Both the position numbers and the translations under genes were made by a program. A stretch of 64,000 nucleotides of DNA. Origin: Hyphomicrobiaceae bacterium (GTDB lineage Bacteria; Pseudomonadota; Alphaproteobacteria; Rhizobiales; Hyphomicrobiaceae). The notes under the pieces are model-generated. The model saw only the letters and a program-made list of their open reading frames with translations, ran no database searches and had not been told where the DNA came from. The stretch covers positions 14,322 to 78,321 of the forward strand of contig JBFWOB010000030.1 of NCBI GenBank assembly GCA_050250755.1, given 5' to 3'. Shown piece after piece: positions 13,157 through 51,257 of this stretch; the stretch's first letter is position 1, and each line of letters opens with the position of its first letter.

Positions 13157-14770
13157 TCAACTCTGGTCATCCCCTCCAGCCCCTTCCCATAAGCCGGGAA
13201 GCGGGATCAGACGGACTGCACGCTCCATGAGGCGGAGCGAAACTTCGCCGTAGGCGTCCGCTGCGGTGCGAGGGGCGTGTCCCTGTATCGCATCGAGAAC
13301 ACGCTTGTCGATGCCCTGCTCTAGACCAAGTGCACGGAACAGGTGCCGCCACGCATGGTTTGGGTCCTTCCGATGCCGACGTCCCACCTCAAGCCCAAGC
13401 GTGTGGACCCACGCTGCCACGTTTTTCGCTAGAATCTTAGGCTGTGGCCTCTTTGCTCCGACCTTCCGTTGGGAGGGGTCGAAGAACAGCGGTCCCGATC
13501 CTTTGGTTTCGACGAACTTAAGAAAGTCAACGCTTAGGACGTAGGGGTGAAGAGGAACCCGGCGTTCAGACGAAACGGTCTTCACACTGCCAGCTTCAGC
13601 CTTAATATCCATGAACCAGATATCGCCCTCTTGCCGAATGTCTTCGGCCCTGAGTTGACAAATCTCTGAGACCCGAGCCCCCGCTAGGGCACAGAGGAGA
13701 GGCACCCACCGGTAGACGGGGCTACTCTCTCTTGCGGCTGCTTGGAGGATCGCGGCGGCATCTGACAGGTCAAAGTTGCGCATCCTTTGGCCGGGCTTAG
13801 TTCCTCGTTTGATCGTAACACCTGCCGCAGCGTTGTGCTCGACGCGGCCGTTATCCACGGCCCAGCCCAAGACGACGCGAAGGGCAGCCAGCTTGCTTTT
13901 TCTAATAGTGGCCGGGGAATTACCCATAGCGAGAAGGCGATCCTTCCAAGCAATCACTGACTGCTTGCAGATGGCGTTAAGCTGGTCGGTTCCAGAAAAT
14001 GCGATGTAGGCTTCGATGTGCTTGCGCCACTCATCAACCGTCTTCTGCTTTGGTTGGGCTTCCTTGGCCCAAGCTTCGAATGCGTCCACGAGCGTTGCGC
14101 TACGCTGTTGGGAACTGCTCGACCGGTTGCCGCTTCTGCGGACAGGGAACCGGGCCTCCACGGGGTCCGGGGAGTAGTCGCCCTCGGAACGCCTTTCCAG
14201 CGTCTGGGCCGCCTTGATCAGAGCCGAGGCGACCGCGGTTAGGAGATCCGCCCTCGTCTTTTTATCCAAGCTGTAACCGTGGCGTTCCAGCCAGGGATCG
14301 AGCTTAATGTGTGGCTCCAGAATGCGTTCGGCCTGACGTGGGTGGTAAGGTGCGCTCTCGACCCCATCCGACGTCGGATCGAGGTACGCAGCGCCGTCCA
14401 GCAGCAAATCCTGGAAAATCGACCATTGCTCGGTCGGCCCGGGCTCATCTTCATGTTGGCCCACGAAGTCTCGATACCACTCACCCGCGATCTCATGGAT
14501 TTCCCGATGTGACAGCCCCGCCGGCGCCTGACGGGCAGTAGCCCAGCGAGCTTCGACCTGCGCCGACACGGACGAATGTCGTAGGCGAGCTTCCGCGATG
14601 TCCTTCGTTTTGAGGGAGACCTTTACGGTGGGGCCGAGTTTCACTGTGCTCGTCAACCCCGCTACGTCCACAGAGAAGCTGCGTCCGGACAGTACCTGGA
14701 GGAGGTCTGAGGGCAATCTTGCACGGTAGTACCAGACCCCCGTAGTGGGGTGGCGCCAAGGCTGAGCCAT
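13157..14770 (-). CDS. Tyrosine recombinase / phage-type integrase
   Basis: 537 aa from ATG 14770 (MAQPWRHP). C-terminal catalytic signature: ARVSEICQL, HAWRHLFR, AYGEV. Confidence 0.9.
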   Translation of the reverse strand: MAQPWRHPTTGVWYYRARLPSDLLQVLSGRSFSVDVAGLTSTVKLGPTVKVSLKTKDIAEARLRHSSVSAQVEARWATARQAPAGLSHREIHEIAGEWYRDFVGQHEDEPGPTEQWSIFQDLLLDGAAYLDPTSDGVESAPYHPRQAERILEPHIKLDPWLERHGYSLDKKTRADLLTAVASALIKAAQTLERRSEGDYSPDPVEARFPVRRSGNRSSSSQQRSATLVDAFEAWAKEAQPKQKTVDEWRKHIEAYIAFSGTDQLNAICKQSVIAWKDRLLAMGNSPATIRKSKLAALRVVLGWAVDNGRVEHNAAAGVTIKRGTKPGQRMRNFDLSDAAAILQAAARESSPVYRWVPLLCALAGARVSEICQLRAEDIRQEGDIWFMDIKAEAGSVKTVSSERRVPLHPYVLSVDFLKFVETKGSGPLFFDPSQRKVGAKRPQPKILAKNVAAWVHTLGLEVGRRHRKDPNHAWRHLFRALGLEQGIDKRVLDAIQGHAPRTAADAYGEVSLRLMERAVRLIPLPGLWEGAGGDDQS

Positions 14771-14871
14771 TCTGATGATCACGGACTGTGTACCTCTCCT
14801 GTGTACCTGCAGGAGAGGAAGAACCCATTGAAGCGCCTTAGTTATCTGAAAACATGGCGCTTTTAGGATCA

Positions 14872-15700: not shown

Positions 15701-16234
15701 ATGGACATTCTTCCGGCGGCCCAGGTGCAGGCCCGTATCGACAAGGCCCGGCAACGCTACTTCGACCTCAAGCACGAGCTCGAGGAGGCGCTGAGACCGT
15801 TTACCGCCGATCCCATGACCGCCTTGAACATCGTGGCCTACGCCGAAGAGTTCGGGGCGGATGAAGCGGCCATGACGCTCAGGCATGAGCCCGTTCGCTT
15901 CGACGTATCCTATCCAACGGCAGGGATTGATGAGGCGACGGCGATCCAGCTGGAAAACCTGGTGTTCGATTTCGCGGATGCTTCCCGCGACCTGGATTTC
16001 TACACAACGATGCGCGAAGACGAGCGGCAGCGCGCCGATCCCAAGCGCCTGCGGGTGATGGTGCACGACGGGCGGGAGTTCACGTTCAACCCCCGCACCA
16101 AGGAATGGCGCTACCTCGATACGCCGGAGCTGATTTACACCTTCCCCATGCAGCGCGTGGAAAACCGGGGCGCGCCAGACATGAGCCCCGATGGGGGCCA
16201 AACGCGAACCCGTCGCCGGGGCCGGGGGATGTAG
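15701..16234 (+). CDS. Hypothetical protein with Arg-rich C-terminal tail
   Basis: ATG 15701 (MDILPAAQ), in frame with ORF 15341-16234. Ends in ...GGQTRTRRRGRGM. Confidence 0.55.
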   Translation: MDILPAAQVQARIDKARQRYFDLKHELEEALRPFTADPMTALNIVAYAEEFGADEAAMTLRHEPVRFDVSYPTAGIDEATAIQLENLVFDFADASRDLDFYTTMREDERQRADPKRLRVMVHDGREFTFNPRTKEWRYLDTPELIYTFPMQRVENRGAPDMSPDGGQTRTRRRGRGM

Positions 16235-16252: not shown

Positions 16253-16882
16253 CTACGGTGCGAGGTCTGTGCCGCGTTCCGGTTCGGGTGCTGTCACCGC
16301 TTCCTCAATCCAGTCCGGCATGGGACCATCCAGCGCCTTCACGATTTCCCCGTCTCGTGTGCGCACCCAGCGTTTCCAGAGCTGATGGTCCAACGAGTTG
16401 TCGAATACATAGCCACGGTCCACCAGCCGGAGAGCATCCTGCAGATTCAAGATGCTTCGCACGTATCGCTCGCGAACTTTATTGCTCGGGACATCGTGGC
16501 CGCCTTGGGCCACACGTTCCGCTATCCGCCGGATGTTGATTTCCGGGTCCGAGGTGCCGACGAAATAAAGCCGGATGAACCAGCCCGCCCGTTTCGCGCG
16601 GCGGATTAAGTCAAGGTGCCGCTGCGTCGAAAACACGGTCTCATACGCAAAGTTGCGGCCGTGCGTCAGGCATTCTTCGCGACGCCTATCGGCAAGTCGA
16701 GCGGCATTCTGTACCGCTTCGAGCGAGTTCCAGTCACCAAATTCCGCCTGCGCAATCTCATCGGCATTGATATAGCTGTGTCCCGCCGTCCATTCGTGTT
16801 TCAGCACCAGCCGGGTCAGCGTTGTCTTGCCGGAACCGTTCGGGCCTGCGACGACGACCATGGAAGGGCGGCGTTCGCTCAC
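16253..16882 (-). CDS. Zeta-toxin-like P-loop kinase
   Basis: 209 aa. N-terminal P-loop GPNGSGKTT. Size and layout match zeta/AAA_33 kinases. GTG start overlaps the upstream stop by 1 nt. Confidence 0.75.
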   Translation of the reverse strand: MSERRPSMVVVAGPNGSGKTTLTRLVLKHEWTAGHSYINADEIAQAEFGDWNSLEAVQNAARLADRRREECLTHGRNFAYETVFSTQRHLDLIRRAKRAGWFIRLYFVGTSDPEINIRRIAERVAQGGHDVPSNKVRERYVRSILNLQDALRLVDRGYVFDNSLDHQLWKRWVRTRDGEIVKALDGPMPDWIEEAVTAPEPERGTDLAP

Positions 16883-17118: not shown

Positions 17119-17308
17119 CTCCTGTTCCAATGGAGTCTGAGCCACCTCTGCCAACCCGTCAAGGCTTCGCCCTGACTGCCCGGTGCATCCTATCCGTGTG
17201 CATTGCGACACACCCCCATGTCACCCATCGCATACAGCGCGTGTTCACCTGCCTATTGTGCCAGCACGCCGGCTTGCCAGCCAAGCGGCAGCAGGCTTCC
17301 ATGCGGGC

Positions 17309-17647
17309 ATGCTGCTATCCACCGTCACCGAGGCCGGGCAAGTCCGGGTTTATGCCACGCGCTACAATTCCATCGTCACCTACTTCACCGAGGACGAAAC
17401 CACCGGCGGCATCAAGCTGAACATGGAACTGGGGTTCTGCGCCCTGCCGGAGGATCTCGTGCGCGTCGGTCCCTCGGTTGGCGAAGCGGTCATCGCCGAG
17501 ATCGCGTTGCGCCTCGGCATTCCGCCCGCTGAGGTGCTGCAGGCCAGCTTGAAGGCCCTGTGCGAGGTGGCGGACCCCGAACTCCCCGCCTACTACCGGT
17601 GGGCGCCGCGCTCGCGTGGCCGCGCCGCCACCTGCTCCGGCCGTTAG
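17309..17647 (+). CDS. Hypothetical protein
   Basis: 112 aa from ATG 17309 (MLLSTVTEAG). Plausible composition, no motif. Confidence 0.4.
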   Translation: MLLSTVTEAGQVRVYATRYNSIVTYFTEDETTGGIKLNMELGFCALPEDLVRVGPSVGEAVIAEIALRLGIPPAEVLQASLKALCEVADPELPAYYRWAPRSRGRAATCSGR

Positions 17648-17875: not shown

Positions 17876-18055
17876 TGTGCCCAAAAAGTACACACGCGGT
17901 ATTTTCACTGCATGAACCACACCCCTATGTTTGCGTGATGGGAGCAAGCAAGTCTTTTGGGCCCAAAAATGGACCCAAAAGATGCTCAATCGGCCGGTGG
18001 CCTCAATCGCACGCGCTTGCTTGTCCCCTCAACGCCGGGGAGGGCTGTGACCGCC

Positions 18056-18454
18056 ATGTGCGCCGCCAAAAACCATAGAAAAGCACAACCGCTCTCCGAA
18101 CGGATCAAGGTCCAGTTGACGGTCGAGCAACGCGACATCCTCGAAGCAAGGGCTGAAGCAGCCGGAATCACACTGGCCGCCTATATGCGCCAGTGCGCAC
18201 TGGTATCGCTGGGCGGTCCGGGAGCGCCCAAACGGCCGCCCCTGAAGCGGAAACGCGAGCAGGAGCTCACGTTCGCGGAAATCCATGAGATGGCGATGCA
18301 GGTGCGCAAGGTGGGCATCAACCTGAACCAGCTCGCCCATCAGGCCAACAGCGGCCTGGTGCCGATCAAGCGCGAGGAAATCGTCTACATCCAGAACCGC
18401 ATCCAGACCGTCCTCAGCGAAGCCTCCGCCGCCATGGAAAGAGCCTTCCGATGA
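18056..18454 (+). CDS. mobC: MobC-family relaxosome accessory protein
   Basis: VGINLNQLAHQAN motif. ATGA overlap with the relaxase start. Start ATG 18056 chosen; the ORF-track start at 17957 is possible. Confidence 0.75.
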   Translation: MCAAKNHRKAQPLSERIKVQLTVEQRDILEARAEAAGITLAAYMRQCALVSLGGPGAPKRPPLKRKREQELTFAEIHEMAMQVRKVGINLNQLAHQANSGLVPIKREEIVYIQNRIQTVLSEASAAMERAFR

Positions 18455-19758
18455 TCGGCAAGGTGCCAAAGGCGGGACAGGGGTTCCGCGGCCTGGTCAA
18501 CTACCTGCTCAACGGCGACAAGGACCAGCAGCATGCTGCCAGGGAAGCAGGCTCCTCAGGCCTGCCGGCGAGCAGGGTGGCATGGTCCGCCATGCGCAAC
18601 ATGCTCATCACCGACCCCAATCTCGCACCGGGCCTGATGCGGGCAACCGCCCACAAGTCCAAACGGGTCAAGAGCCCCGTCTACCATTACGTGATCAGCT
18701 GGCACCCCGATGAGGCGCCTACCGACGACTTCATGCAACAGGTCTGCGATGTGACCTGCGACGACCTTGGATTGCAGGACTACCAGCGCCTCTACATCGC
18801 CCACCGCGACACCGATCACCACCACGTGCACATCGTGGTCAACCGCGTGCACCCGGAAACGGGCACCGCGTGGAACCGCCGGCAGGACTGGGTGCGCATC
18901 GAGCAAAGCCTCCGCCGCCAGTCCGAAAACATGGGCCTCGAAATCGTGCCGGGCCGCCACACCGACGGGCAACAGTTCAGGAACGTCGGCAAAAGGCCAT
19001 CGGACGGCGCCTTGCGGCGCAAGGCAATGAAACCGTCCGGGGTCCCCGAGCGCAGCTGGACCAAGGAGATGATCCGCGAACGGCGCGAGGCGCTGTCGCG
19101 CACGATCGACGCGTGCTCGAGCTGGAGCCAGTTGGACCGGGCGCTGTCCGTCATGGGCTACCGACTTCACCGCAAAGGGCAGGGGCTGGTCATCGCCGAT
19201 GCGGGCGGCACGATGAAGCTGTCGGATGTCGGCAAGACCATCCGCCTCAAGGCGCTCGAGGCGCGGTTCGGGCAGACCTTTGACCAGCACGAGACGCTGG
19301 CGCAGATGATGGACGACCAGGCGCGCGGGGCGTCGGTTGCCGCCCCGGTGTCCCTGACCGCACCGCCGCCTCCGCCGTCCCCCGCTCCGAGGGATACGCC
19401 CATGACGGCCGGCGCCTTACATCGCGCACCGCCGCTTTCTCCACCGTCGGCCGACCCCGATCGGGAACGTACCGCCGAGAAGTACACCGTCCTCGCCGGT
19501 GCCAAGGACAAGGCCGATCTCGCCGAAGCCTTGCGGGCGCTGGGCCTCGCCTCCGTCGACAACGTGCGCAGCGCCCGCGCCGAGGTCGTGAAAGCCATGG
19601 AAGATGTGGAAAAGGAGAAATCCGTCCTCGATCAGTTGATCAGTGATCTTGCCATCCCGGGTGCCGGCGGTAACGCTCCGAAGAAACATGACTCCGGACC
19701 AAGTGACAATGCCCCGCCCCCTCAGGACAAGCGCCGACGTTCGAGGCGCCGCCGCTAG
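18451..19758 (+). CDS. Relaxase/mobilisation nuclease (MobA/VirD2 type)
   Basis: N-terminal relaxase domain with His-rich metal motif HRDTDHHHVHIVVNRV. Pro/Ala-rich linker. C-terminus is KRRRSRRRR. Confidence 0.9.
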   Translation: MIGKVPKAGQGFRGLVNYLLNGDKDQQHAAREAGSSGLPASRVAWSAMRNMLITDPNLAPGLMRATAHKSKRVKSPVYHYVISWHPDEAPTDDFMQQVCDVTCDDLGLQDYQRLYIAHRDTDHHHVHIVVNRVHPETGTAWNRRQDWVRIEQSLRRQSENMGLEIVPGRHTDGQQFRNVGKRPSDGALRRKAMKPSGVPERSWTKEMIRERREALSRTIDACSSWSQLDRALSVMGYRLHRKGQGLVIADAGGTMKLSDVGKTIRLKALEARFGQTFDQHETLAQMMDDQARGASVAAPVSLTAPPPPPSPAPRDTPMTAGALHRAPPLSPPSADPDRERTAEKYTVLAGAKDKADLAEALRALGLASVDNVRSARAEVVKAMEDVEKEKSVLDQLISDLAIPGAGGNAPKKHDSGPSDNAPPPQDKRRRSRRRR

Positions 19759-19775: not shown

Positions 19776-20807
19776 ATGCCTGCCGCCAATCTCCGCCAAG
19801 GCAGCACGCTCTACGCCCTCGGCCTGCACCGGACGGAGGGAGCACACTGGTACGACATCAAATTGGGCGCCCCGTTCTCCAAAGGCGGCGCCGCGCGGCT
19901 TTGGCATGTCGAGAAGCCGGGCCTCGCGCTGCCGCTGGTGGCCAAGATCTGGAACAAGCAAGGCTTGGGCGAGGTCTTTTCAACTCCGGTGGAAGCCACC
20001 CGCGTGCTGCGGCTGGTCGCCAACCGCGACCAGCTTCACAACCACATCCCAGCGGTGGTCTGGCCACGCCGCCTGCTGTTCACCCGGCCGGAGCGGGACA
20101 ACGTCCAGCGGGATTTCCGCGGCTTCACCATGTCCCGCCTCGACCACATGCGGAAGCTGCATCACATCATCGCACTGTCCCAGAAAGGCCAGTCCCCGCT
20201 CACCTTCGACCAATCCAAACGCATGGTGCTGATGCTGTGCGAAGCGCTGCAGAAGCTGCACGAGCACCCCTGGCAGTTCCGCATCGCCGATTTTTCGCCA
20301 AACAACATCATGTTCAACGAAGACTTCACCACCCTGGCCTTCGTCGACGCCGACAGCTACCAGTTCCTCTATCCCGACCCCGAAAGCCGCACCAATATTC
20401 AATTTAGGCCCACCGGTTTCACCCTCGGCTATTCGTCTCCCAAAGCCGTCAAGGACGAGCTTCTGCGCAAGACGGGTGACCCGCCCGTTCTGGTCGATGA
20501 GCAACACGACCAGTTCGTGCTCGCCATCCACATCTTCCAGATCTACATGGCCCATCTCGGATTGGGCGGCGCGGCACCCTTCCAGAAATTCGAGCGCGGC
20601 AACGAGAACGATGCCATCGCCGCAGGCCGCTTCACCCATGACATGCCCAAGGACCACCAACCCAACGCGTTCGTCCAGGAACAATACCTCCGTATCCCGG
20701 CGCCCGTCCGCGAAGCCTTCAGCCGCACTTTCGCCCGTGGCAAACCCCTGACCACACGCGAATGGGCCGACCTGTGCTCAACGCACTGGAGGTCCCTTCA
20801 ACCCTGA
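19776..20807 (+). CDS. Protein-kinase-like fold protein (Ser/Thr kinase-like)
   Basis: Ordered but degenerate kinase motifs: Gly-rich loop (LGAPFSKGGAARLW), Lys (PLVAKIW), catalytic loop (IADFSPNNIMF), DFG-equivalent (FVDADSY), GYSSPK. Confidence 0.65.
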   Translation: MPAANLRQGSTLYALGLHRTEGAHWYDIKLGAPFSKGGAARLWHVEKPGLALPLVAKIWNKQGLGEVFSTPVEATRVLRLVANRDQLHNHIPAVVWPRRLLFTRPERDNVQRDFRGFTMSRLDHMRKLHHIIALSQKGQSPLTFDQSKRMVLMLCEALQKLHEHPWQFRIADFSPNNIMFNEDFTTLAFVDADSYQFLYPDPESRTNIQFRPTGFTLGYSSPKAVKDELLRKTGDPPVLVDEQHDQFVLAIHIFQIYMAHLGLGGAAPFQKFERGNENDAIAAGRFTHDMPKDHQPNAFVQEQYLRIPAPVREAFSRTFARGKPLTTREWADLCSTHWRSLQP

Positions 20808-21831: not shown

Positions 21832-22740
21832 ATGCCAAACCAGCCCCAGGATCCCGCGTGGCATACGTTCGGCAAGTCACCCCTCATCAACGGGGACGCC
21901 GGCGGAACGCCGATTCCCAAGGACAAGACGCACCTCAAGCGCTTTCCGTTCGTGTTCCTTGTGGATGTTTCCCATTCGACCTCGTTCGGCGGCGACAATG
22001 CCGACCTCCACGCCATCAACCGCGAGCTGCCGCGGTGTTTCGAGACCCTGAGGAGCCCGCCGCCCGACAGCGACCTCGCCAACGTGAAGGGGCAAATAGA
22101 TATCTGTTTGGTTACCTATTCGCAGACACCCAAGAACATCTTCCTGTGGCAACCCGCCGACGAGCTGCCGACCAGCGTCAGCCTCCAATCCGAAACCAAC
22201 ACCTCCACCCGCGCCGCCCTCAACCACGCGATGGACCTGATCGAAGAACGGCTGAAGCTCCTGAAGCAGCCCGGCCAGAAAGTGCAGACCGGCGCACCCC
22301 ACATCTTCCACATCACCGACGGCGTCCCCAACGACGTCTACCCGCACATGCCGGAATGGAAGCAACTGGTGGACCGCATTGCCGTGTTCGCCACCAACGC
22401 CGACCAGGACCGTGCCACCGACCAGAAGGGGCATATCCTGCATTTCGTCACGCCCAGTGCCGAGCGGATCAACAAAGACAACCGCTTCATCGATGAGAAC
22501 GGCAATGACATCTCCGGCAAGGAAGCGATGATCAAGCTGTCGGGCGAAAAGACCGTCATAACCCTCAACCGCGGCGCCAGCTCGCTGCCCGACGTGATCA
22601 AGCTGATCACCGCCATCATCAGCGTCAAATCCACCAACTCCAAAACCACCGTGGCGGAAACCATCGCCGAAGTGGTGGAGGAAAGCGACGGCGCGCTCGG
22701 CATGCCCGACAGCTACCCGGCTCTCGGCGCGAAACCATGA
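21832..22740 (+). CDS. vWA-domain protein (TerY-like)
   Basis: MIDAS motif DxSxS (FLVDVSHSTS, nt 21964-21981) and downstream HITDGVPND. Confidence 0.8.
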   Translation: MPNQPQDPAWHTFGKSPLINGDAGGTPIPKDKTHLKRFPFVFLVDVSHSTSFGGDNADLHAINRELPRCFETLRSPPPDSDLANVKGQIDICLVTYSQTPKNIFLWQPADELPTSVSLQSETNTSTRAALNHAMDLIEERLKLLKQPGQKVQTGAPHIFHITDGVPNDVYPHMPEWKQLVDRIAVFATNADQDRATDQKGHILHFVTPSAERINKDNRFIDENGNDISGKEAMIKLSGEKTVITLNRGASSLPDVIKLITAIISVKSTNSKTTVAETIAEVVEESDGALGMPDSYPALGAKP

Positions 22741-23558
22741 ACCCCGAGCTCGTGACCCAGTGCCGCCTCGCCACCGAGCAATGGCGGGGCTGGCTCATCT
22801 CGTCCGTGTCGCAGCAAGGCAAGCGCCACCACCAGCGTTCCCTGCCGACCGACGATGCCCTCCTGGTCGCCGCCGCCGGCGACCATCTTTTGCTCGGCGT
22901 GGCCGACGGCGTCTCAAGCTGCCCCTTGTCCCGCATCGGCTCTGAGCATGCCTTGGCCGCCATCTACGCCCACGTCGATCAGGCGCTCCTGAAATCCGGC
23001 GGCGAACCGAGCCCGGACATCCTCGCCCACGCCATGGCGAACGCCCACTATGCGCTGCAATCGCTTGCCGACCAGACCGGCGCCCCCATCGACGATTACT
23101 CAACCACCGTGGCAACCGTCCTGATCGGCCCCACCACCATCTACGCCGCCAATATCGGTGACAGCAGCCTCGCCTACCTCACCAAGCCCCGCAGCGCCGC
23201 CAACCCCGATACGGCGGTCCTCCTGCCGCTTTGCTCCGCCCCGCAGCAGGATGACGGGGTCACGCCCATCACGTTCCCCAACTGGAACAAGTTCCTTGCA
23301 CTTGCCCGCCACCCCGTCGACGGCGTCGATGCCGTGCTTCTTGCCACCGACGGCGCCGAGGACTTCCTGTTCAACGGCCGGCACGCCACCGGGCAGGTCC
23401 TGAGCCCCGCCGCCGTCAGCGCGTATCTGTCCAACTGCAACGACTTGTCGCCGAGGCTCCTGCCCCTGTTCCTCGCCGACTACATCCAGAAGCTCGACAA
23501 CGGCACCGACGACCGAAGCCTCATCATTGCCTCACCCCACCCGGCGCTGGCGTTATGA
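22737..23558 (+). CDS. PP2C-family Ser/Thr phosphatase
   Basis: Metal-binding Asp motifs LGVADGVSS and LLATDGAEDF. ATGA overlaps with vWA (22737-22740) and traG (23555-23558). Confidence 0.75.
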   Translation: MNPELVTQCRLATEQWRGWLISSVSQQGKRHHQRSLPTDDALLVAAAGDHLLLGVADGVSSCPLSRIGSEHALAAIYAHVDQALLKSGGEPSPDILAHAMANAHYALQSLADQTGAPIDDYSTTVATVLIGPTTIYAANIGDSSLAYLTKPRSAANPDTAVLLPLCSAPQQDDGVTPITFPNWNKFLALARHPVDGVDAVLLATDGAEDFLFNGRHATGQVLSPAAVSAYLSNCNDLSPRLLPLFLADYIQKLDNGTDDRSLIIASPHPALAL

Positions 23559-25829: not shown

Positions 25830-27449
25830 ATGCCGACGAACCAACAGCCCGCCGCCAGCAGCGCTGAAATTGGCCCGTTCGGTCCGCTTCGACACGGTGT
25901 GTTCCGAAACATGTGGCTGGCCAGCATATTCTCCAACCTGGGACTGTTTGTTCTGGGTGTGGGTGCTGCCTGGGATATGACGCTCATGAGCGGTTCGGCG
26001 AGCATGGTCGCATTGGTTCAGACCGCCATGATGCTTCCCGTCGCGCTGTTCTCCTTGGCGTCGGGTGCCATCGCCGACATGTTCGATCGCCGCAAGGTGG
26101 CGCTTGTTGCGCTGGTGATCTCGATCTGTGGATCGATCGTCCTTGCTCTCATGGCGCACACCGGACACATCACTCCCGGATCCATGCTCGCCCTGTGCTT
26201 CATCGTCGGCTCGGGCACCGCGCTCCTTTGGCCCGCTTGGGGCGCCTCTGTCGGAGAGCAGGTGCCGCCGGACGTATTGCCAGCGGCGGTGGCGCTCAAC
26301 GGCATCAGCTACAATGCTGCCCGCAGCTTCGGACCGGCCATCGGGGGCGTCATCGTTGCGGCGGCTGGTGGCGTGGCTGCATTCGCGACGGCGGCACTGT
26401 CCTATATCCCTCTGCTCATCGTACTTTACCTATGGCGACGCCAAGGTGAGCCCTCGCGGCTGCCTCCGGAGAGCCTTGGGCGTGCCATGATCTCCGGCTT
26501 GCGCTACGTCAGCAACGCGCCGTCAATTCGCGTGGTGATTGGCCGAACGTTGATAACCGGCCTCGCAGGTGGCTCGGTGGCAGCGCTTCTACCCCTTGTC
26601 TCGCGCGATCTGCTGCTGGGCGGCGCTCAGTTGTTCGGTCTTCTTCTCGGGGCCTTTGGCATCGGTTCGATTTGCGGGGCCTTCAGCTTCTCCCTTTTGC
26701 GAGATCGCATGAGCGGCGAGGCGGTGGTTCGCCTGTGCACGTTGGGCATGGGTTTGGGCGTTGCCGTCATTGCCGAGAGCCGTCTGCCGGTGCTCACGGT
26801 CGCTGCCCTCGTCCTGTTCGGGGCCGCTTGGACGGGATGCATGATGAGCTTTAACGTGACGGTGCAGATGTCGGCCCCTCGCTGGGTCGCCGCGCGCAGT
26901 CTCGCGGCGTATCAAGCTGCTGTGGCTGCAGGTGTCGCGCTTGGCGGATGGGGCTGGGGGGTGCTGGCCAACGACTGGGGAGTCGACCGCGCGCTCCTGG
27001 CCTCCGCTGCCGCCCTGCTCGTGTCGATAGCCCTTGGCCAGTGGTTGCGTGTTCCAACGATCGGTTCTCAGAAAGCGGTGTCCGGCAATGAGTTATCCGA
27101 CCCGGACGTGCAAATTCCGCTTACCGCCCGCAGCGGCCCGATTGTCGTCGAGATCGAGTATCGCGTCGAAACCGACCGAGCGCGCCCCTTCCATGCGGTG
27201 ATGCAGCGAGTCCGGTCGAGCCGGACACGCAATGGCGCCTACGGCTGGTCCATCGCACGTGACATTGCCGATCCGGAGATCTGGATCGAGCGCTATTCAT
27301 GCCCCACTTGGCATGACTATCTGCGCCAGAGGAACCGGCCGACAACGGCAGAGCGCGAACTTCACGCGCGTGCAGCAGAGTTCCACATCGGCCCGGAGCC
27401 GGTACGTGTCCATCGCATGCTCGAACGCCCGGTCGGCTCTGTCCGCTGA
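25830..27449 (+). CDS. MFS transporter with soluble C-terminal extension
   Basis: About 12 hydrophobic helices over the first ~400 aa, then a ~130-aa hydrophilic tail. Confidence 0.8.
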   Translation: MPTNQQPAASSAEIGPFGPLRHGVFRNMWLASIFSNLGLFVLGVGAAWDMTLMSGSASMVALVQTAMMLPVALFSLASGAIADMFDRRKVALVALVISICGSIVLALMAHTGHITPGSMLALCFIVGSGTALLWPAWGASVGEQVPPDVLPAAVALNGISYNAARSFGPAIGGVIVAAAGGVAAFATAALSYIPLLIVLYLWRRQGEPSRLPPESLGRAMISGLRYVSNAPSIRVVIGRTLITGLAGGSVAALLPLVSRDLLLGGAQLFGLLLGAFGIGSICGAFSFSLLRDRMSGEAVVRLCTLGMGLGVAVIAESRLPVLTVAALVLFGAAWTGCMMSFNVTVQMSAPRWVAARSLAAYQAAVAAGVALGGWGWGVLANDWGVDRALLASAAALLVSIALGQWLRVPTIGSQKAVSGNELSDPDVQIPLTARSGPIVVEIEYRVETDRARPFHAVMQRVRSSRTRNGAYGWSIARDIADPEIWIERYSCPTWHDYLRQRNRPTTAERELHARAAEFHIGPEPVRVHRMLERPVGSVR

Positions 27450-27747: not shown

Positions 27748-28329
27748 ATGGATAACCAAAAACCGCAACAGGGCGAATTCGCCATCAACCTCAACTTCCG
27801 CCGCAACGGCAATCCGAAGGCGCCGGCCCTTTCCGGCCGCATCAGCGCCCCGGACTCCCCCGACAAGATCCTCTCCTTCGATGCCTTCGAGCACCAGAAC
27901 GACAAGGGCAAGTTCTGGATCGGCAGCGTTGACCCGCGCGGCGCCTCCATGCGCAACGCGCTGAGCAACACCGCTCCCGAACGCGGCACCCATTTCATCG
28001 CCATCCGCGAGAACGGCTTCAAGGTCTTCCGCGAGGACGCCGAGGGCAACCCGAACCCCGCCTATCAGGCGCTCACCGACGCGGAGAAAAAGCAGCACGA
28101 CGCGCTACCGTCCTACTGGGCCGTGTGGACCCGTGGCCGCAACGATCCTGAGATCCGCGCCGCCGCCTGGGAGCGCAAGCCCACCCGCTATGGACCCTGG
28201 GCGTCCGGAAGCACCCAATACCCGCAGCGCGGCATGGATGCCGCCGAAGCCTACATCGACCAGGCGCCCGGACCCGATGAGATCCCGTTCTTCGACCACG
28301 CGACCGCCGGCAACGAGGGCAGGGCGTAG
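27748..28329 (+). CDS. Hypothetical protein
   Basis: 193 aa. ATG 27748 is preceded by AAGAAAGGGAA. Followed by a terminator. Confidence 0.55.
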   Translation: MDNQKPQQGEFAINLNFRRNGNPKAPALSGRISAPDSPDKILSFDAFEHQNDKGKFWIGSVDPRGASMRNALSNTAPERGTHFIAIRENGFKVFREDAEGNPNPAYQALTDAEKKQHDALPSYWAVWTRGRNDPEIRAAAWERKPTRYGPWASGSTQYPQRGMDAAEAYIDQAPGPDEIPFFDHATAGNEGRA

Positions 28330-28527: not shown

Positions 28528-29151
28528 ATGACTGACGAGGCACTCCCCGAGAACCCCAAGGTCGGCCGCATTTCTGCGATCCAGAACATGTACCGCAGGC
28601 CGAACAGTGACCAGCCCATGTTTCGCGGCTTCATCCAGCTCGAGGATGAGGACCGTCCGCGCAACCTCGTTCTCTGGCTGCATCGCTCAAGGACGGGGCG
28701 CGTCGTGCTGGGTGGGCGCAGCTCGAAAACCGCGGCGTCCAAGCTTTCCGAGGCCCTGGACGACGTCTTCGAGAAGGATGGCGACTTTCCGCCCTTGAAG
28801 CAGGTGAACGGCCTCGACGTGGACACCGGTTCCCTTGTCCTCTTTGAGAATCCGGAGAAGCAGGGCCCGAACAGCTCGGATTTCTACGGGTACTACAATC
28901 CGGGCACCCACCACCCGCTGTTGGCCGTGCAGGTCTGGTCCGACAACGATGCCGACGACAGGTTGATGCTCAATGGCCCCCTCAGGGTCTACGTCGAGCG
29001 GCAGCAGGTGCAGGAGCGGGTGCCCGACATCGACGAGGCCACCCGGCAGGAGCTGCAGCAGCGCGTGCATGACGACGGCCGGCCCGACGCCGACAACGAC
29101 CAGGAGGATATGGAACAGGCGCCGCGGCGCAGACGGGGCAGGGGCCGTTAG
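28528..29151 (+). CDS. Hypothetical protein with acidic patch + Arg-rich tail
   Basis: ATG 28528 (MTDEALPEN) lies 9 nt after CAGGAG. Ends in DADNDQEDMEQAPRRRRGRGR. Confidence 0.55.
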   Translation: MTDEALPENPKVGRISAIQNMYRRPNSDQPMFRGFIQLEDEDRPRNLVLWLHRSRTGRVVLGGRSSKTAASKLSEALDDVFEKDGDFPPLKQVNGLDVDTGSLVLFENPEKQGPNSSDFYGYYNPGTHHPLLAVQVWSDNDADDRLMLNGPLRVYVERQQVQERVPDIDEATRQELQQRVHDDGRPDADNDQEDMEQAPRRRRGRGR

Positions 29152-29274
29152 CCGACCTTGGCCCCGCATGGGGGCGAGGGGAGGGCGGCGATCCGCAAAC
29201 GTCGCCCGGCCCGTCCTGCGAAGGCTCGCCGGGACAGAAAACCAAACGGTAATCTCATGGGCGGGGTTCCGTCG

Positions 29275-29703
29275 CTACATCTTCCGGCCACGCCGTCTCG
29301 GGCGGTCATCATCCGGGCGTTGGTCATCGTCCATGGCCTGCCCGGCCACCGGCTCATCGCCTGGAGGGGACGCATCATGGCCCAGAATGTCCGCCACCAT
29401 GTCCGGCGCCTGTGTGGCCGCACGCTTCACCGAATACGTGAGCACCCCGCGCACCGCCGCGTCCCCGGCGCCGGAGAGCTTCCCGTAGAGGTCCCGCCAT
29501 TGCTCCGGCTCCATGGCATCGACCAGCCGGTCGAGCTCCCGCTTCGCCGCCTCCCGGTCGACCCCGGCCTCGTCGGTCATGCCCTGCCAGCGCGCCCACG
29601 CCAGCGCCGCCCGTTCCGCCGGTTTGGCAGCAAGGCGGTCGGCGGCCGTGCGGGCGCCGCGCGCCTTCAGCTTGCCGGGGTTCCACAAGGCCATTGTCCG
29701 CAT
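29275..29703 (-). CDS. Hypothetical protein with acidic patch + Arg-rich tail
   Basis: The only frame here with protein-like composition. Ends in DDDQRPDDDRPRRRGRKM. Start is at 29703 or 29694. Confidence 0.45.
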   Translation of the reverse strand: MRTMALWNPGKLKARGARTAADRLAAKPAERAALAWARWQGMTDEAGVDREAAKRELDRLVDAMEPEQWRDLYGKLSGAGDAAVRGVLTYSVKRAATQAPDMVADILGHDASPPGDEPVAGQAMDDDQRPDDDRPRRRGRKM

Positions 29704-29938
29704 CCTTCAAAGACAGGCAAGGGGGACGCCGCCCCGCATCCCGGGGCCCGCGTCCTCGCACGCCAAGCCGGCGGGCCGTCTTGGCCCTTCGGGCGTCGGC
29801 CGCTGGCGCGGTCAGGCCCATGCCCAGAGCTAACGTGCTCGCATGCGCCATGACAATGGCTATTGCCTGAAGGGCACAGGAAACGGCGGTGTCCTTCGCC
29901 GGGGCAACGATCTTCACACGGAACCAACGGACCACACC

Positions 29939-30223
29939 ATGCGAACCCTGGTCAGGCTGGGCACCCGGTATTACTGGCGAGACGACGAGGACCGCTGTTT
30001 CATCCCCCTCCACAATCCCGCCGCGCGCATACCGTTCTCGCTGGCGGAAAGCGCCCATGTCCGCTTCGAGCAGGTGCCCTGCGCGACCGACCTGCCGCTC
30101 ACCCTCGGCCATCGCGCGTACACCTGCGACGACTGCCGCGAGAGCTTTGCCGCCGCCTGCCATTGCAACAACACGCCGCAACCCGCCCCCCGCCCCCGGC
30201 GGCGCAAATCCATGAGGCGCTGA
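29939..30223 (+). CDS. Hypothetical small Cys-containing protein with Arg-rich tail
   Basis: 94 aa from ATG 29939 (MRTLVRLG). Contains CDDCRESFAAACHC. Ends in PRPRRRKSMRR. Confidence 0.4.
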   Translation: MRTLVRLGTRYYWRDDEDRCFIPLHNPAARIPFSLAESAHVRFEQVPCATDLPLTLGHRAYTCDDCRESFAAACHCNNTPQPAPRPRRRKSMRR

Positions 30224-30224
30224 C

Positions 30225-30851
30225 GTGCACCCGTTTCTGCGCAGCTATGCCCACACCGCCTGGACCCCGGCCGACCCCCTCCAGGGCCTTGCCGCGCACG
30301 AGCGCCGCGCCATCCTGCTGATGCCCTCCACCTTCGGCGAACGCCTGCGCATGGCGCCCTGGCGCTCCTACGCCAAGAAGCGCGAGACCATGCTCCGCAT
30401 CGTCGCCGAACGCCGCCTGCTCTACGACCTCATGCAGGAGCGCATGCAGCAGGCAAAGCCATCGCCCGCCGCCGATGAGATGCTGACGCCCGGCGACCGC
30501 GTCCTTGCCGAATGGCAGGCAAGGGCCATGCAGGTTTCTCCGTCCGCCGCCATGGATGCCGTTGCTGCCTACCGCATGGCCCTGCAGCGCGACGCGATCG
30601 CCGCGCTCATGGACCAGCGCCGCCAGGAAACCCTCACCGATCTCGCCCGCAATCCCGCCGCCCGCGCCGAGCGGGGCATCCGCGACAAGCGCCTCCAGGC
30701 CCTGCAGCAGATCGAGCTGCAACGCGCCCGCCTGCATGTGAAGGCACTGGAAATCAACGCCGGGCTCCACGATGAACCGGAACGGGAACCGCCCGCCGTC
30801 CCGGCCCACGACGACGATGACCGGCCCCGCCGCCGCTCCCGCTCCATGTGA
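30225..30851 (+). CDS. Hypothetical protein with acidic patch + Arg-rich tail
   Basis: GTG start 1 nt after the previous stop. Ends in HDDDDRPRRRSRSM. Confidence 0.5.
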   Translation: MHPFLRSYAHTAWTPADPLQGLAAHERRAILLMPSTFGERLRMAPWRSYAKKRETMLRIVAERRLLYDLMQERMQQAKPSPAADEMLTPGDRVLAEWQARAMQVSPSAAMDAVAAYRMALQRDAIAALMDQRRQETLTDLARNPAARAERGIRDKRLQALQQIELQRARLHVKALEINAGLHDEPEREPPAVPAHDDDDRPRRRSRSM

Positions 30852-31192
30852 GGTGCCCCGCCATGCGCAGCTACCCCGAGTTCCCGTTGCTGGTGATCGG
30901 TGACCGCGCCTACCGCATCGACATCCGCCGCAACATGCTCGTCAATACCCGCAACACATATGACCGCGTGTTCTTCCGCGATGTGGAAGCCCACTTCATC
31001 CAGATTGCGCGCTATTCGCCGCCGAACATTCGCATGCAATGCCTCGAGGCCGCCGTTGCCTTCGACAAGGCCCTGCAACGGCCCCGTGGCTCGACCTCGC
31101 AGGAGCTGCTGGCCTTCATCAACCACCCGCAAAACGTCTGGGTTCCCGAGCCGGAGCCAGGGCACCGTTTCCGGCGGCGCCAGCGCATGTGA
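30848..31192 (+). CDS. Hypothetical protein with Arg-rich tail
   Basis: GTG 30848 overlaps the previous stop; an alternative ATG is at 30863. Ends in PGHRFRRRQRM. Confidence 0.5.
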   Translation: MRCPAMRSYPEFPLLVIGDRAYRIDIRRNMLVNTRNTYDRVFFRDVEAHFIQIARYSPPNIRMQCLEAAVAFDKALQRPRGSTSQELLAFINHPQNVWVPEPEPGHRFRRRQRM

Positions 31193-31619: not shown

Positions 31620-32997
31620 GCTCCGCAGAGAAATGTATGGACCGGCTGCTGGACGCAATCGAGATCGCGCGTGGGGATCGGAAGTCGCTGATATGTATCC
31701 GGCCTGTTTGATCGGCTCGCGGGCCGTGGCCTTGATGGGAATACGCGCGCACCACTGGTCTCATTAGCGGATAGGCCGTCAAGCGGCCATTTCTCTGCCC
31801 AGACTTTGGATGCGCATTTTCGTCCGTTCCATGCATTGATCTCTGTCGCGAACCTCTTCGATGTCGTCAGGCTAGACCGCAATCGTCTCGTCGAACCTCC
31901 TATCGTGCCGCAAGATGCTCCAGGCGATGCGCGCCAGTTTGTTGGCGAGCGCGGTCGCAAGCTTGTTGCGATGAAGCCGAGGCGCTACTTGCTGCAGCCA
32001 CGCACCAAAGCTAAACCGCGCCCAGTTGTGCGGGCGCATCAGGATGATGTTCGCCGCCTGGATGAAAAGTGTTCGCAGATACTTGCTGCCGCGCTTGGAG
32101 ATACGCCCCAGGATCGGCCGACCGCCCGTGCTGTACTGGCGTGGGATTAGGCCCAGCCAGGCGCCGAAGTCGCGCCCGCGACCAAAGGCTTCGCCAGTGC
32201 CGATGGCGGCGACCATGGCAGTGGAGATCAGAGGGCCGACGCCGGGGATGCTCATCAGGCGCTGGCAGTTCGCCTCTTTCTTACTGAGCGCCTCGATCTC
32301 CCGCGTTACCGTCTCGATGCGTTCGTCGAGCCAGAGCCAGTCCTCGTAGAGACCGACGATGAGATCAGCCATCCGCGGCGAAATCTCCTTCTCGCGGTTC
32401 TTCAGAATCTCGAACAAGGAGTTGCGCAGTGCTCTCGATCCAGTGCGGACAGCGATACCCTGCTCGATCAAGAAGGCGCGGATCTGGTTGATTGTGGCGG
32501 TGCGGCGGGAAACCAATCGGGATCTAACGCGATGGCAGGCCTGCAGGTCGAGCTGATCCTGCGTCTTCTCTTGCACAACGCGGAGGTTCGGCCGAAGTGC
32601 CGCTTCAGCGATGGCCTCGGCATCGTTGTAGTCGTTCTTTTGTCCCTTTAGGAACGGCTTCACATGGATCGCCGGAATGATCCGCGGCTGGTGGCCGAGC
32701 TGGCGAAGAACGCGGCTGACAAAGTGCGCGCTGAGGCACGCTTCCATGCCCACGATGCAAGGCGGCAGCGCTTTGAATGTATCGGCGAGTGCCAATCGCT
32801 TGATCTTGCGGCGCAACGCGATCTTGCCTGAGGTGTCGAAAGCGACGAGGTGAAAAACGTCCTTGCCGATGTCGATACCAATCGAGGCGAAAGCTGGCGC
32901 AATGGTATCCATGAGCTGCTTCTCCTGTTCGTCGCGGGTCAAGGTCTTTGCAGACTAACCCGCTGGGGAAGCAGCCGGTCCATTCCATTAGCCGACT
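31620..32997 (-). mobile_element. IS110-family insertion sequence (IS1111-like layout)
   Basis: Perfect 14-bp subterminal inverted repeat: ATGGACCGGCTGCT at 31637-31650 and AGCAGCCGGTCCAT at 32970-32983. TCGAAC occurs at both outer junctions (31614-31619 and 32998-33003). Single transposase gene. Ends are approximate. Confidence 0.6.
31872..32912 (-). CDS. IS110-family transposase/recombinase
   Basis: ATG 32912 (MDTIAPAFASIGIDIGKD) with a GGAGAA RBS. N-terminal DEDD-type region (IGIDIGKD...GMEACLSAH...YNDAEAIAEA). Confidence 0.9.
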   Translation of the reverse strand: MDTIAPAFASIGIDIGKDVFHLVAFDTSGKIALRRKIKRLALADTFKALPPCIVGMEACLSAHFVSRVLRQLGHQPRIIPAIHVKPFLKGQKNDYNDAEAIAEAALRPNLRVVQEKTQDQLDLQACHRVRSRLVSRRTATINQIRAFLIEQGIAVRTGSRALRNSLFEILKNREKEISPRMADLIVGLYEDWLWLDERIETVTREIEALSKKEANCQRLMSIPGVGPLISTAMVAAIGTGEAFGRGRDFGAWLGLIPRQYSTGGRPILGRISKRGSKYLRTLFIQAANIILMRPHNWARFSFGAWLQQVAPRLHRNKLATALANKLARIAWSILRHDRRFDETIAV

Positions 32998-43387: not shown

Positions 43388-44114
43388 CGTTAGGACACGA
43401 TTGCGAAGCCCATCAGGCATCACGCGGAGCTAACTTTTTAATCACGATCCAAATAGTGGTGGCGCTTCCGGACCAAACCGTCGCGCCGTCCGACGATTGG
43501 ATTCTGTCTCTTTGATCTTCCTAGTCTTCAGCAGGATCTCTTCCATCGTCCGTTGCATGGGCGAGCGCCATTGCGGTGATGTGCAGAGCTTGCAGACATT
43601 GGTTCCCTAGGCCGTGCAACTGGCGGTGGTATGTGTGCAAATGTCCGCTTTCCAAAATAACGGACGCGAGCTTCCCATCATTGCTGTCGGATCCGAACGA
43701 AGGTTCCGAGGGCTCGCAATCGCGCGTTGGTTAGGAATTCCGCTGCCTGCAGCGTAACGCGTCCTAAGCTCGACCCGTTAGTCGGCAATTTCGCAAGCAC
43801 ACCGCGATGTAAGGGGGGAACATCAGACGGCATCGGTGAGGGCACGAGCGAGCGGCCAAGTCCATCTCTCGCATCCACAACTCGCCGATCGTATTCCCCG
43901 CGCGCGGCGCCATGGGTTGAGGACTACGCAGCTGCCATTCAGCTGAGAGCCATCGCGTAACCTCGAATCGTGGCTATTGCGACTACCGTCTGATCGCTGC
44001 GCAGGCGCCACATCGCGCCAATCTACTCAGGGTTAATTGTTCTTTTAACGTTCCGTTCAGACACGAGCGTGCTAGAATCATATGTTGACGGCGCTAACCA
44101 GGGAGGTCGAGCCC

Positions 44115-45122
44115 ATGTCGAACAAACCGATTGCCGCGCTCCTCGCCTCCCATATTGAAGGCGACGACGAGCAGTTCCTGTCGATCATCTTGCAGTTCGC
44201 GGCCCAGGAGGCGCGGCATGGCCGCACTGACGAGGCAGCGAAGCTGAAGGAGCTTGTCCAATCCGCTCGCGACCGGCGACGGGTCTCACCGCCGTCCGGC
44301 CAGACGCCCATCCCGATGGCGCGCCCGCGCGGCGAGCTGCAGGGCTTGGTGGACAGCTCCTATCCGAAGCTCACGCTCTCAAGCATGGTCCTCTCTCGCG
44401 ATGCCCGCGAGCGCCTCCTGCGCGTGATCCGGCAGCAGCAGTCGCGCGCCGCTCTGCGCGATCACGGCCATGTGCCAACCAGCCATATGTTGCTGGTCGG
44501 CCCGCCGGGTACCGGCAAGACCATGACGGCTGCGGCCATAGCAGGCGAGCTGCACCTGCCGTTGTTCACCGTGCGCCTGGAAGCGCTATTCAGCCGCTTC
44601 CTCGGAGAGACCGCAGCCAAGCTGCGGCTGCTGTTCGATCAGATCGCGCAGGTGCGCGGCGTCTACCTCCTTGATGAGTTCGACGCAATCGGCTCGCGAC
44701 GTGCCGCGACCAACGACGTCGGCGAGATCAGGCGCGTGCTCAATTCGGTGCTGGCCTTCATGGAGGAGCCAAACTCGACCGACAGCCTCGTGATTGCCGC
44801 CACCAACCATGTCGAGATCCTCGACAGCGCGCTGGCCCGCCGCTTCGACGAAGTGATCGAGTATGCCCTGCCTGACGCATCCGCGGCGCGGACGGTGATC
44901 GAAAGCAGGCTCGGCAAGTTCCGGCTGCATGCGCGGTCCTGGAAGAAGGTCTCCGCCGCTGCAGAGGGCCTTAGTCAAGGCGAGCTGTGCCGAGCTGCCG
45001 ATCAGGTGGTCCGCGATGCCATTCTCGCGAAGGCCGACAAGGTGACTGGGGTCGGGCTCGAAAATGCGCTCAAAGCCCGACAGGCTGTGCAGAGAAGATT
45101 CCGTTCTCAAAGCGAGTTGTAG
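44115..45122 (+). CDS. AAA+ ATPase (IetA-like)
   Basis: Walker A GPPGTGKT and Walker B VYLLDEFD. ATG 44115 lies 8 nt after GGGAGG. Confidence 0.8.
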   Translation: MSNKPIAALLASHIEGDDEQFLSIILQFAAQEARHGRTDEAAKLKELVQSARDRRRVSPPSGQTPIPMARPRGELQGLVDSSYPKLTLSSMVLSRDARERLLRVIRQQQSRAALRDHGHVPTSHMLLVGPPGTGKTMTAAAIAGELHLPLFTVRLEALFSRFLGETAAKLRLLFDQIAQVRGVYLLDEFDAIGSRRAATNDVGEIRRVLNSVLAFMEEPNSTDSLVIAATNHVEILDSALARRFDEVIEYALPDASAARTVIESRLGKFRLHARSWKKVSAAAEGLSQGELCRAADQVVRDAILAKADKVTGVGLENALKARQAVQRRFRSQSEL

Positions 45123-45176
45123 GGCGCCGGTTGCGAATCACTTACCGTTGGAACCTGCCCTAACGAGTTTTGAGCC

Positions 45177-51219: not shown

Positions 51220-51257
51220 GGCCCGTCACCCTGATTTTGCGGACCGGCGCTTGATAG

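Follow-up and report, generated by a model that had tools for sequence, protein, structure and literature searches.

Many of the proteins encoded within a mobilisation island of the 64,000-nt stretch of Hyphomicrobiaceae DNA analysed here (the window; W in the tables) end in nearly the same short peptide, and the island's relaxase ends in the same way. The island extends from about 13.1 to 31.7 kb, with a GC content of 64-67%. Since it has a relaxase and a type IV coupling protein (T4CP) of the TraG/VirD4 type, and since the window holds no component of a type IV secretion system (T4SS), the island is, on its gene content, a predicted integrative mobilisable element (IME) with its own relaxosome and its own T4CP and without genes for a mating pore. 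The terminal peptide is a tag under selection at the level of the peptide, it is common to the relaxase and to accessory proteins, and its flavour is specific to the element (Table 1). To judge from the comparisons that follow, it probably acts as an element-specific C-terminal recognition tag for the element's own T4CP, i.e., as a translocation signal that the accessory proteins have in common with the relaxase.

An earlier note on the same DNA had described seven such tails, together with a weaker basic one that closes a small open reading frame (ORF), and all are present at the positions listed in Table 2, including the one by which the relaxase ends like the accessory proteins. In the window, the tails take the form (R)P-R-R-R-x-R-x-M/R and make up the last 8-10 residues of proteins built to a common plan: the relaxase and about six soluble accessory proteins each consist of a folded body, then a linker that is disordered and often acidic, and an extreme C-terminal peptide of 5-9 residues. 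The tagged proteins lack transmembrane segments and have linkers prone to disorder, and in four of the eight tagged window proteins an acidic patch precedes the tail. The AlphaFold2 model of family 6 (pLDDT, the predicted local distance difference test score, 59.5) has helices at residues 6-107 and pLDDT below 50 at residues 105-132 and 136-139; that of family 0 is of low confidence (pLDDT 47). The bodies of the proteins had been called unrelated, and this held, except that the products of the ORFs at 27748 and 28528 are paralogues.

The tailed ORFs have a GC content at third codon positions (GC3) of 0.77-0.87, as in real genes. Of the 18 island proteins, 7 have the sequence RRR among their last 12 residues, as against none of the 31 non-island proteins of the window (Fisher p=3.7e-4). 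At that position it occurs in 4 of 123 GC-matched shadow ORFs of the island (p=4e-5), and it is absent from all 4167 internal 12-residue windows taken from those island proteins. The pattern RxRxRx0-2$, where $ is the C-terminus, closes 6/18 proteins of the island, as against 0/31 proteins elsewhere in the window and 1/123 shadow ORFs; a net positive charge and an R-x-R-x-R core thus characterize the tails of this element. All six arginine codons are used in the tails (CGC 16, CGG 11, CGT 5, AGG 3, AGA 2, CGA 2), and a search for direct repeats found no repeat family that maps to the DNA encoding them. The similarity, and the selection behind it, therefore lie at the level of the peptide.

Related elements were sought in order to follow the tails through evolution. 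A scan of genomes with the T4CP yielded five syntenic elements from Hyphomicrobiaceae (L001-L005; L numbers denote related elements or loci), with about 40% identity in the T4CP. Homologue searches and look-ups of genomic context added L010/L011, L012 (from Methyloligella halotolerans), and L013-L016, and a metagenome scan added about a dozen more, for some 20 related elements overall, the relatives lying in Hyphomicrobiales. Isolates whose genomes have relatives of the element are Rhodomicrobium vannielii ATCC 17100, Methyloligella halotolerans, and Hyphomicrobium zavarzinii ATCC 27496. Clustering of their proteins separated an untagged backbone (family 2, NikA, family 7, VWA, PP2C, and the T4CP) from the tagged proteins, which comprise the relaxase, one of the two paralogues of family 0, and families 6, 8, 9, 12, 13, 16, 17, 21, and 23. 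The relaxase is tagged in every element examined, and in each element 3-7 non-homologous proteins share its flavour, the flavours including RRRxRxM, RGRSR, RDRDR, H(E/T)PxP, GPSR, and acidic DEPx(F/M/Y).

Table 1. Closing residues of the relaxase and of accessory proteins in the window's element (W) and in related elements
Element	Relaxase	Accessory proteins
W	RRRSRRRR	RRRxRxM type
L014	RQRRRRR	RPMRR, KRRRR, RKLRR, RRRGM, RSRKR, RSMKR
L004	KKRRGRRR	KKRRRGRSR, YKRRSRGR, RHRSRSR
L005	RRRDRDR	RRRRDRDR, RRRARDR, KKRDKSR
L001-3 and relatives	(K/E)RDRDR	ELEHAR, DEMER, PERDRS, GRDRDRN
L010/L011	RRRHTPEP	HTPEP, HEPQP, SLEP, HEPSP, REPSP
L013	KKGGPSR	LGGPSR, DDGPSR, GHGPSR
L012/L027	GFEPER / GFEPKR	DEPRF, NEPRM, DEPIY, NEPHM, DEPRL
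L015	DRGRGM	RDRSI, RDRDM, REMSM, REPSL, HDRMM
L016	DDDDERDL	DELERA, EMEHAR, DDEREY

Whether the tail would be conserved in homologues had been raised as a test of the original proposal, and the answer has two sides: orthologues of the tagged proteins keep the slot for a tail, but the sequence in the slot varies by element and matches that of the element's own relaxase. Orthologues of the family 9 protein (15701 in the window) end in RHRSRSR in L004, DDEPRF in L012, RPQRPMRR in L014, and KKRDRSI in L015. Those of the tagged family 0 protein (28528) end in HTPEP in L010, RKLRR in L014, ELEHAR in L001-3, DDGPSR in L013, and REMSM in L015. The same is seen with family 12 (30225; RRRARDR in L005, NHEPSP in L010, TRSRKR in L014), family 13 (30848; DREPSP in L010, SRSMKR in L014), and family 17 (29939; ...RRKNAPSLEP in L010). 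In L013, the serine of GPSR is coded by TCA, TCC, or AGC (TCN as against AGC across copies), and flavours covary in elements of lower GC content as well (57% in L005). Searches for homologues of the small ORFs through a word index gave few matches, whereas an exhaustive profile search recovered family 6, and most of the 61 representatives retrieved at 50% identity were judged by eye to have a charged tail of the same flavour classes. By the same judgement, most of the 120 relaxase homologues listed have a charged tail in one of a few recurring flavours.

The earlier note had likened the tails to the positively charged, Arg-rich signals of VirB/D4-type substrates. Positive charge as a conserved property did not survive the comparison, for tails are acidic in orthologues from L012, L016, and L027 (e.g., DEPRF, DDERDL) and contain proline in other sister elements (HEPSP, GPSR). 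Charge is therefore not an invariant of this family of elements. One family 6 homologue (P0176) closes with ...ELDDEIPF, essentially the C-terminal tip of SSB, the protein that binds single-stranded DNA; this hints that some tag classes may mimic motifs that bind host hubs.

The sharing of tails within elements can be measured without reference to any flavour, by a C-terminus-anchored BLOSUM62 similarity between non-homologous proteins. High-scoring pairs of proteins from different families are more frequent within than between elements by a factor that rises from 2.5 when the last 4 residues are considered to 7.9 with the last 8 (permutation p<=5e-4). The relaxase tail ranks the neighbours from its own element near the top (rank-sum p of about 3e-4), and a score of at least 8 against the element's own relaxase is reached by 23/80 accessory tails, as compared with 2/66 tails from host-flank proteins and 0/36 from backbone proteins. 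No sharing within loci was evident at 35 loci around more distant TraG/VirD4 homologues (3/4663 pairs). The extra metagenome loci taken alone give a within/between ratio of 1.04; these are mostly close relatives with one flavour and noisy ORF calls.

If several proteins bear the same tag, what reads it? L010/L011 and L014 are closely related elements that differ by a switch of tag class, seen on the relaxase and on four orthologous accessory families. Across this switch, family 2 is 99% identical (L011 and L014) despite the different tags, and the untagged paralogue of family 0, the one with the PFFD motif, is 95% identical (L010 and L014), while identity stands at 55% for the T4CP, 43% for VWA, and 50% for PP2C. 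Since family 2 and the untagged family 0 copy are nearly unchanged, they cannot set the specificity. Moreover, L012, L015, and L027 lack the VWA, PP2C, and family 7 genes and have tags nonetheless, which leaves the T4CP as the only candidate that is both universal and diverging. By this elimination, the T4CP would most probably be the reader.

The interpretation we favour may then be set out as follows. A tag of 5-9 residues would be read by one receptor encoded by the element, and the tagged proteins would be recruited in the manner of the relaxase, an obligatory T4SS substrate known to be exported. They would leave through the hijacked T4SS of a helper and enter the recipient together with the DNA. 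Receptor and tags would co-evolve, giving each element its private flavour. On this view, which we infer, the tag would be read by the T4CP, its recognition would bring about translocation, and the cargo would be active in the recipient. The earlier note had proposed a translocation signal and had claimed that the element encodes its own coupling protein; the first proposal is partly supported, and the second proved right, the gene product matching Pfam T4SS-DNA_transf with E=7.9e-55.

Among the closest known systems is that of Agrobacterium. Arg-rich C-terminal peptides are the signal of VirB/D4 substrates and are reported to interact with VirD4 (PMC3937733, PMC4486765, PMC1366493), and the full consensus is quoted as R-X7-R-X-R-X-R-X-Xn (PMC1366493). 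The substrates compared here were VirD2, VirE2, VirE3, VirF, and VirD5 of Agrobacterium VirB/VirD4 and Msi059 and Msi061 of Mesorhizobium. Like their signals, the tails in the window are short, unstructured, positively charged, and at the extreme C-terminus, with an R-x-R-x-R core; in both cases the signal is common to a VirD2-type relaxase and several unrelated proteins, and the island has a T4CP of the VirD4 type. Unlike them, the window tails miss the full consensus and have specifically conserved last residues (xRxM at the very end), and the tags of sister elements are acidic or contain proline. The context also differs, for here it is an IME without a T4SS of its own, and presumably bacteria, not plant cells, are targeted.

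With regard to the sharing of a signal, the closest conceptual precedent is VbhT, and the reasoning is alike in both cases: a protein that bears the relaxase's signal is taken for a substrate. VbhT and the relaxase of its plasmid have virtually identical secretion signals, and VbhT is translocated between bacteria during conjugation (PMC5675462). As with the BID signal found in rhizobial TraA relaxases, VbhT, and the Bartonella Beps, an accessory protein of the island bears the signal of its own element's relaxase. The BID signal, however, is a folded domain with a charged tail, spread as nearly identical sequence by terminal reassortment at the DNA level, whereas the island's tag has 5-9 residues, its codons differ between copies, and each element has many tagged proteins. 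Pfam scans of the relaxase and of all the tagged proteins found no BID domain, giving only Relaxase and TraI_middle, both in the relaxase.

That conjugation can carry many proteins is established for T4SSs of F plasmids, and conjugation systems (the pED208/F "conjutome", RP4, pKM101) deliver proteins encoded by plasmid and by chromosome, some of the C-terminal signals sufficing for transfer (PMC8406263, PMC11288057). The signals of pED208/F, RP4, and pKM101 vary in kind, some lying at the C-terminus and others internally, some charged and others hydrophobic, and they are promiscuous across systems, whereas the tag of the island is uniform and element-specific.

The C-terminal tip of SSB (DDDIPF) binds partner proteins. 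As with the SSB tip and with the tail of F TraD that meets TraM, a few terminal residues on a flexible linker would suffice for a partner to be bound specifically. F has its tail on the T4CP, with the relaxosome protein TraM as the reader (PMC3159463), while in the island it is the relaxase and the accessory proteins that have the tail.

Several considerations weigh against the translocation reading. The large ORFs of the 64-kb window contain no T4SS domains, and no T4SS is listed among the called genes of the related loci that were fetched, so the route of export is hypothetical. Scans of the tagged proteins with Pfam, NCBIfam, and PHROGs and a profile search of PDB sequences gave nothing usable; with no recognisable function among them, a role in recipients, be it in establishment or anti-defence, is conjecture. 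The full Vergunst consensus, which the earlier note had cited, is matched by none of the 18 island proteins (sought as [RK]x7[RK]x[RK]x[RK] over the final 30 residues), although its R-x-R-x-R core is present in the 6/18 noted above, and the acidic and proline-containing flavours do not fit the paradigm of positive charge in VirD4 substrates. An attempt to find positions in the T4CP that vary in step with tail charge came to nothing: the top columns, positions 333 and 340 of the window's protein, were driven by L016 and failed in L012, whose tails are acidic. Mantel-type comparisons of tail similarity with the identity of the T4CP, relaxase, NikA, family 2, family 6 body, VWA, and family 7 gave no positive correlation and so single out no reader. 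Since no backbone protein correlates, the flavours are not simply inherited and must switch recurrently. Finally, L010 and L011 are separate contigs of one sample that were taken as one element, and gene calls in L001-L005 and in the metagenome loci followed a simple rule based on ORFs and GC3.

The main rival is that the tag is a docking or assembly motif for the same hub and not one for export: the C-termini of the tagged proteins and of the relaxase would all attach to a single hub, and these proteins would do their work in the donor alone, for instance by regulating or timing transfer. The T4CP, the relaxosome, or some other protein of the element might be that hub. Evidence of a common reader, from both the tail-similarity statistics and the switch comparison, serves this idea equally, and the conservation of the very last residues (GPSR, HEPxP, and EPxF/M/Y, each at the end of the chain) resembles the recognition of a C-terminal peptide by a pocket. 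The SSB tip is one example of such docking. The tail of F TraD, which binds TraM, is another (PMC3159463). Yet the relaxase, a known export substrate, has the same tag, and five to seven unrelated small proteins docking as non-substrates is the less economical arrangement. The precedent for signals shared by relaxase and effector concerns export (PMC5675462). We consider donor-side docking improbable, though worth keeping in view.

It is unlikely that the tail is instead a substrate or regulatory site of the kinase-like/VWA/PP2C module, or a degron, by which the stability or activity of a co-regulated set is controlled. Such a module is indeed conserved between relaxase and T4CP, and several flavours offer a serine or threonine (RRRSRSM, GPSR, HEPSP, HTPEP). 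As a general explanation, modification by kinase and PP2C is nonetheless out, since many tails have neither residue (RRRRGRGR, RRRGRKM, RFRRRQRM, HEPQP, DEPRF) and since, as noted, three of the tagged elements (L012, L015, L027) lack the VWA, PP2C, and family 7 genes; no protease encoded by the elements is universal. Less credible still is that the tails are generic, disordered, and serve to bind nucleic acid or balance charge, the Arg-rich part contacting DNA or RNA and the acidic patches auto-inhibiting it. The strongly basic tails of the window, half of them with an acidic patch ahead (4/8), and the DNA-processing role of the relaxase would suit such a function, but orthologues in sister elements have acidic or neutral proline-containing tails, the tails of one element agree in their exact last residues (GPSR, HEPxP), and RRR is never internal in island proteins. 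An artefact of high-GC codon composition (the earlier note's own alternative), of mis-called ORFs, or of a translated DNA repeat at gene ends has a negligible chance of being correct: Arg-rich shadow frames are common at the island's GC content, but the motif appears in 0-4 of 123 GC-matched shadow ORFs against 6-7 of 18 island proteins, codons differ between tails without any DNA repeat there, orthologues with conserved bodies exist, and flavours covary in lower-GC elements too, so that both composition and repeat origin are effectively refuted.

The genes of the island and its surroundings are collected in Table 2. The recombinase and the HTH_17-like gene form its own module for integration and excision; in L012, L014, and L015 the corresponding place is taken by Pfam-HTH_17 genes, which the C-terminus of the window's gene matches. 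Because this gene occupies 15368-15601 on the opposite strand, 15701 is the right start for the family 9 gene. Likewise, an ORF first called at 29843 probably starts at 29939, according to comparison with the L010 orthologue. The only relative detected for the ORF at 31343 on a related element (L004, 108 aa) is untagged, and its membership in the tagged set is therefore doubtful. No tRNA gene was found in the window and no convincing direct repeat flanks the island, whose right end is obscured by IS110.

Table 2. Features of the island and of the rest of the window, with the closing residues of tagged proteins
Feature	Coordinates	Strand	Matches and remarks	C-terminal tail (coordinates)
hsdR, type I restriction-modification	2133-5327	-		
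hsdM, type I restriction-modification	6589-8184	-		
Serine resolvase	9016-9564			
Tyrosine recombinase (integrase)	13157..14782	-	Pfam DUF6538 + Phage_integrase	
HTH_17/AlpA-like excisionase-type gene, 77 aa	15368..15601	-	C-terminus ...DLDAWV..F.STSEYG	
Accessory protein, family 9, 177 aa	15701..16234	+	tagged	RTRRRGRGM (16205-16231)
Zeta-toxin/AAA_33-like kinase	16253-16882	-	untagged	
ORF, 109 aa	16882-17211	-	untagged	
Backbone protein, family 2	17183..17647	+	untagged; C-terminal PE(H/Y)YR(Y/W) motif	
NikA/MobC-type relaxosome accessory protein	17957..18454	+	untagged; Pfam NikA-like E=2.9e-11, MobC E=1.7e-7	
MobA/VirD2-type (MOBP-like) relaxase	18451..19758	+	tagged; Pfam Relaxase PF03432 E=3.7e-29 + TraI_middle	KRRRSRRRR (19729-19755)
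Kinase-like protein, family 7	19776..20807	+	untagged; weak match to kinase part of LanL, E=3e-5	
No assigned identity	20866..21573	+	untagged	
VWA protein	21832..22740	+	untagged; Pfam	
PP2C phosphatase	22737..23558	+	untagged; Pfam	
TraG/VirD4-type T4CP, 670 aa	23555..25567	+	Pfam T4SS-DNA_transf (E-value in text), TrwB_AAD_bind, TraG-D_C	
MFS_3 ("transmembrane secretion effector") transporter	25830..27449		between T4CP and family 0 genes	
Family 0 paralogue	27748..28329	+	untagged; conserved (D/E)(I/V)PFFD motif near C-terminus	
Family 0 paralogue, 207 aa	28528..29151	+	tagged; acidic linker, then APRRRRGRGR	RRRRGRGR (29125-29148)
Accessory protein, family 6, 139-142 aa	29275..29703	-	tagged; helical body, disordered acidic linker	RPRRRGRKM (29278-29304)
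Small Cys-rich protein, family 17, about 94 aa	29939..30223	+	tagged	RPRRRKSMRR (30191-30220)
Accessory protein, family 12, 208 aa	30225..30851	+	tagged; ends DDDDRPRRRSRSM	RPRRRSRSM (30822-30848)
Accessory protein, family 13, 114 aa	30848..31192	+	tagged	RFRRRQRM (31166-31189)
Small ORF, 81 aa	31343..31588	+	weaker basic tail	KRGRPKRP
IS110	31872-32942			
AAA ATPase + subtilase (Peptidase_S8) pair	44082-47726		12 kb downstream of island	
DnaE2-like error-prone polymerase, 1080 aa	within 47977-55150	-	adjoins SIR2_2-domain gene	
SIR2_2-domain protein, 1269 aa	51341-55150	-		
Second tyrosine recombinase	55294-56325		after SIR2_2 gene	

Residues 1-285 of the relaxase are 28-30% identical by tblastn to genes annotated "TraI/MobA(P) family conjugative relaxase" of plasmids, and from this and the Pfam Relaxase match its N-terminus is predicted to be a MobA/VirD2 nuclease domain homologous to TraI(P). 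The whole protein is 100% identical to one from a Hyphomicrobiaceae metagenome-assembled genome; plasmid databases offered no close relative when searched by DNA, and a protein search there gave nothing nearer than distant TraI(P) matches. The kinase-like, VWA, and PP2C genes sit between relaxase and T4CP, an arrangement kept in most of the related elements, and the set resembles a TerY-P-like phosphorylation triad inside a mobilisation module. Family 0 is universal in these elements and uncharacterised, matching nothing in Pfam or among PDB sequences; each paralogue shows an internal two-repeat pattern, ...N..K...PD(Y/F)(W/Y)G...W...G..L(S/T)G, and the (D/E)(I/V)PFFD of the untagged copy recalls the SSB tip. 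The MFS_3 gene is inserted in the window lineage only (MFS genes are also near on the contig of one close relative) and is probably cargo. The kinase gene at 16253 is directly preceded by the 109-aa ORF, the two overlapping by stop and start codons, and perhaps they constitute a toxin-antitoxin pair inside the element. Among the relatives, the T4CP of L012 (11338-13496) is split into two ORFs of 205 and 477 aa, possibly through a frameshift or decay. L014 and L018 have upstream of the relaxase a Fic-domain gene and a small upstream partner, ending in ...PDRGR (L014 6177-7065), and the Fic-domain gene brings to mind the FicT toxins that have been co-opted as effectors in conjugation.

The other large ORFs of the window encode the restriction-modification system and resolvase upstream of the island and, downstream of it, CusAB-like resistance-nodulation-division (RND) proteins, the AAA ATPase and subtilase, the DnaE2-like polymerase, the SIR2_2-domain protein (possibly a defence protein), and the second recombinase. 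The GC content is about 0.59-0.61 at 32-44 kb, the stretch with IS110, the CusAB-like RND genes, YtkA, DUF305, and ArsR-rhodanese, and is again island-like (0.65-0.66) at 44-50 kb. The AAA/subtilase pair recurs just downstream of the L015 element (L015 19901-21248), with AAA proteins 39% identical. This recurrence and the GC profile suggest that a metal-resistance insertion splits a larger island.

The choice of substrates by T4CPs is a long-standing problem, the known signals being degenerate, poorly predictable, and studied mostly in single systems. The related elements compared here make up a natural series with discrete tag classes, and a change of class takes in the relaxase together with several unrelated proteins. 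In the literature searched we found no description of a short tag uniform within an element and specific to it, switching jointly on relaxase and accessory proteins and sometimes acidic or rich in proline, and we know of none ourselves. One might go further and suppose, tentatively and with the balance tipping against it, that this IME family has a private "address code", in which a tag on the scale of a pentapeptide and its cognate T4CP diversify jointly into orthogonal classes, each loading only its own relaxase and some 3-7 effector-like proteins. The classes of such a code, a part of the proposal held just as tentatively, would be basic RxRxM, alternating RDRDR, H(E/T)PxP, GPSR, and acidic DEPxΦ. 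If it were true, the hijacked T4SS would be loaded without the element competing or cross-talking with its helper or with other elements in the same cell, T4CP recognition would be sequence-specific and anchored at the carboxy-terminus rather than merely charge-based, and nature would have supplied orthogonal pairs of signal and receptor.

Should the T4CP be the reader, as we favour, the tagged proteins would be direct candidates for proteins that a mobilisable element sends along with its DNA, possibly including new factors for establishment or anti-defence. The series of elements would provide a comparative handle for mapping the recognition site on T4CPs of the VirD4/TraG type, and the tags themselves could serve as short orthogonal export signals for engineered delivery of proteins through conjugative systems. 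It would show, besides, that mobilisable elements are able to privatise their access to the secretion machine of a helper.

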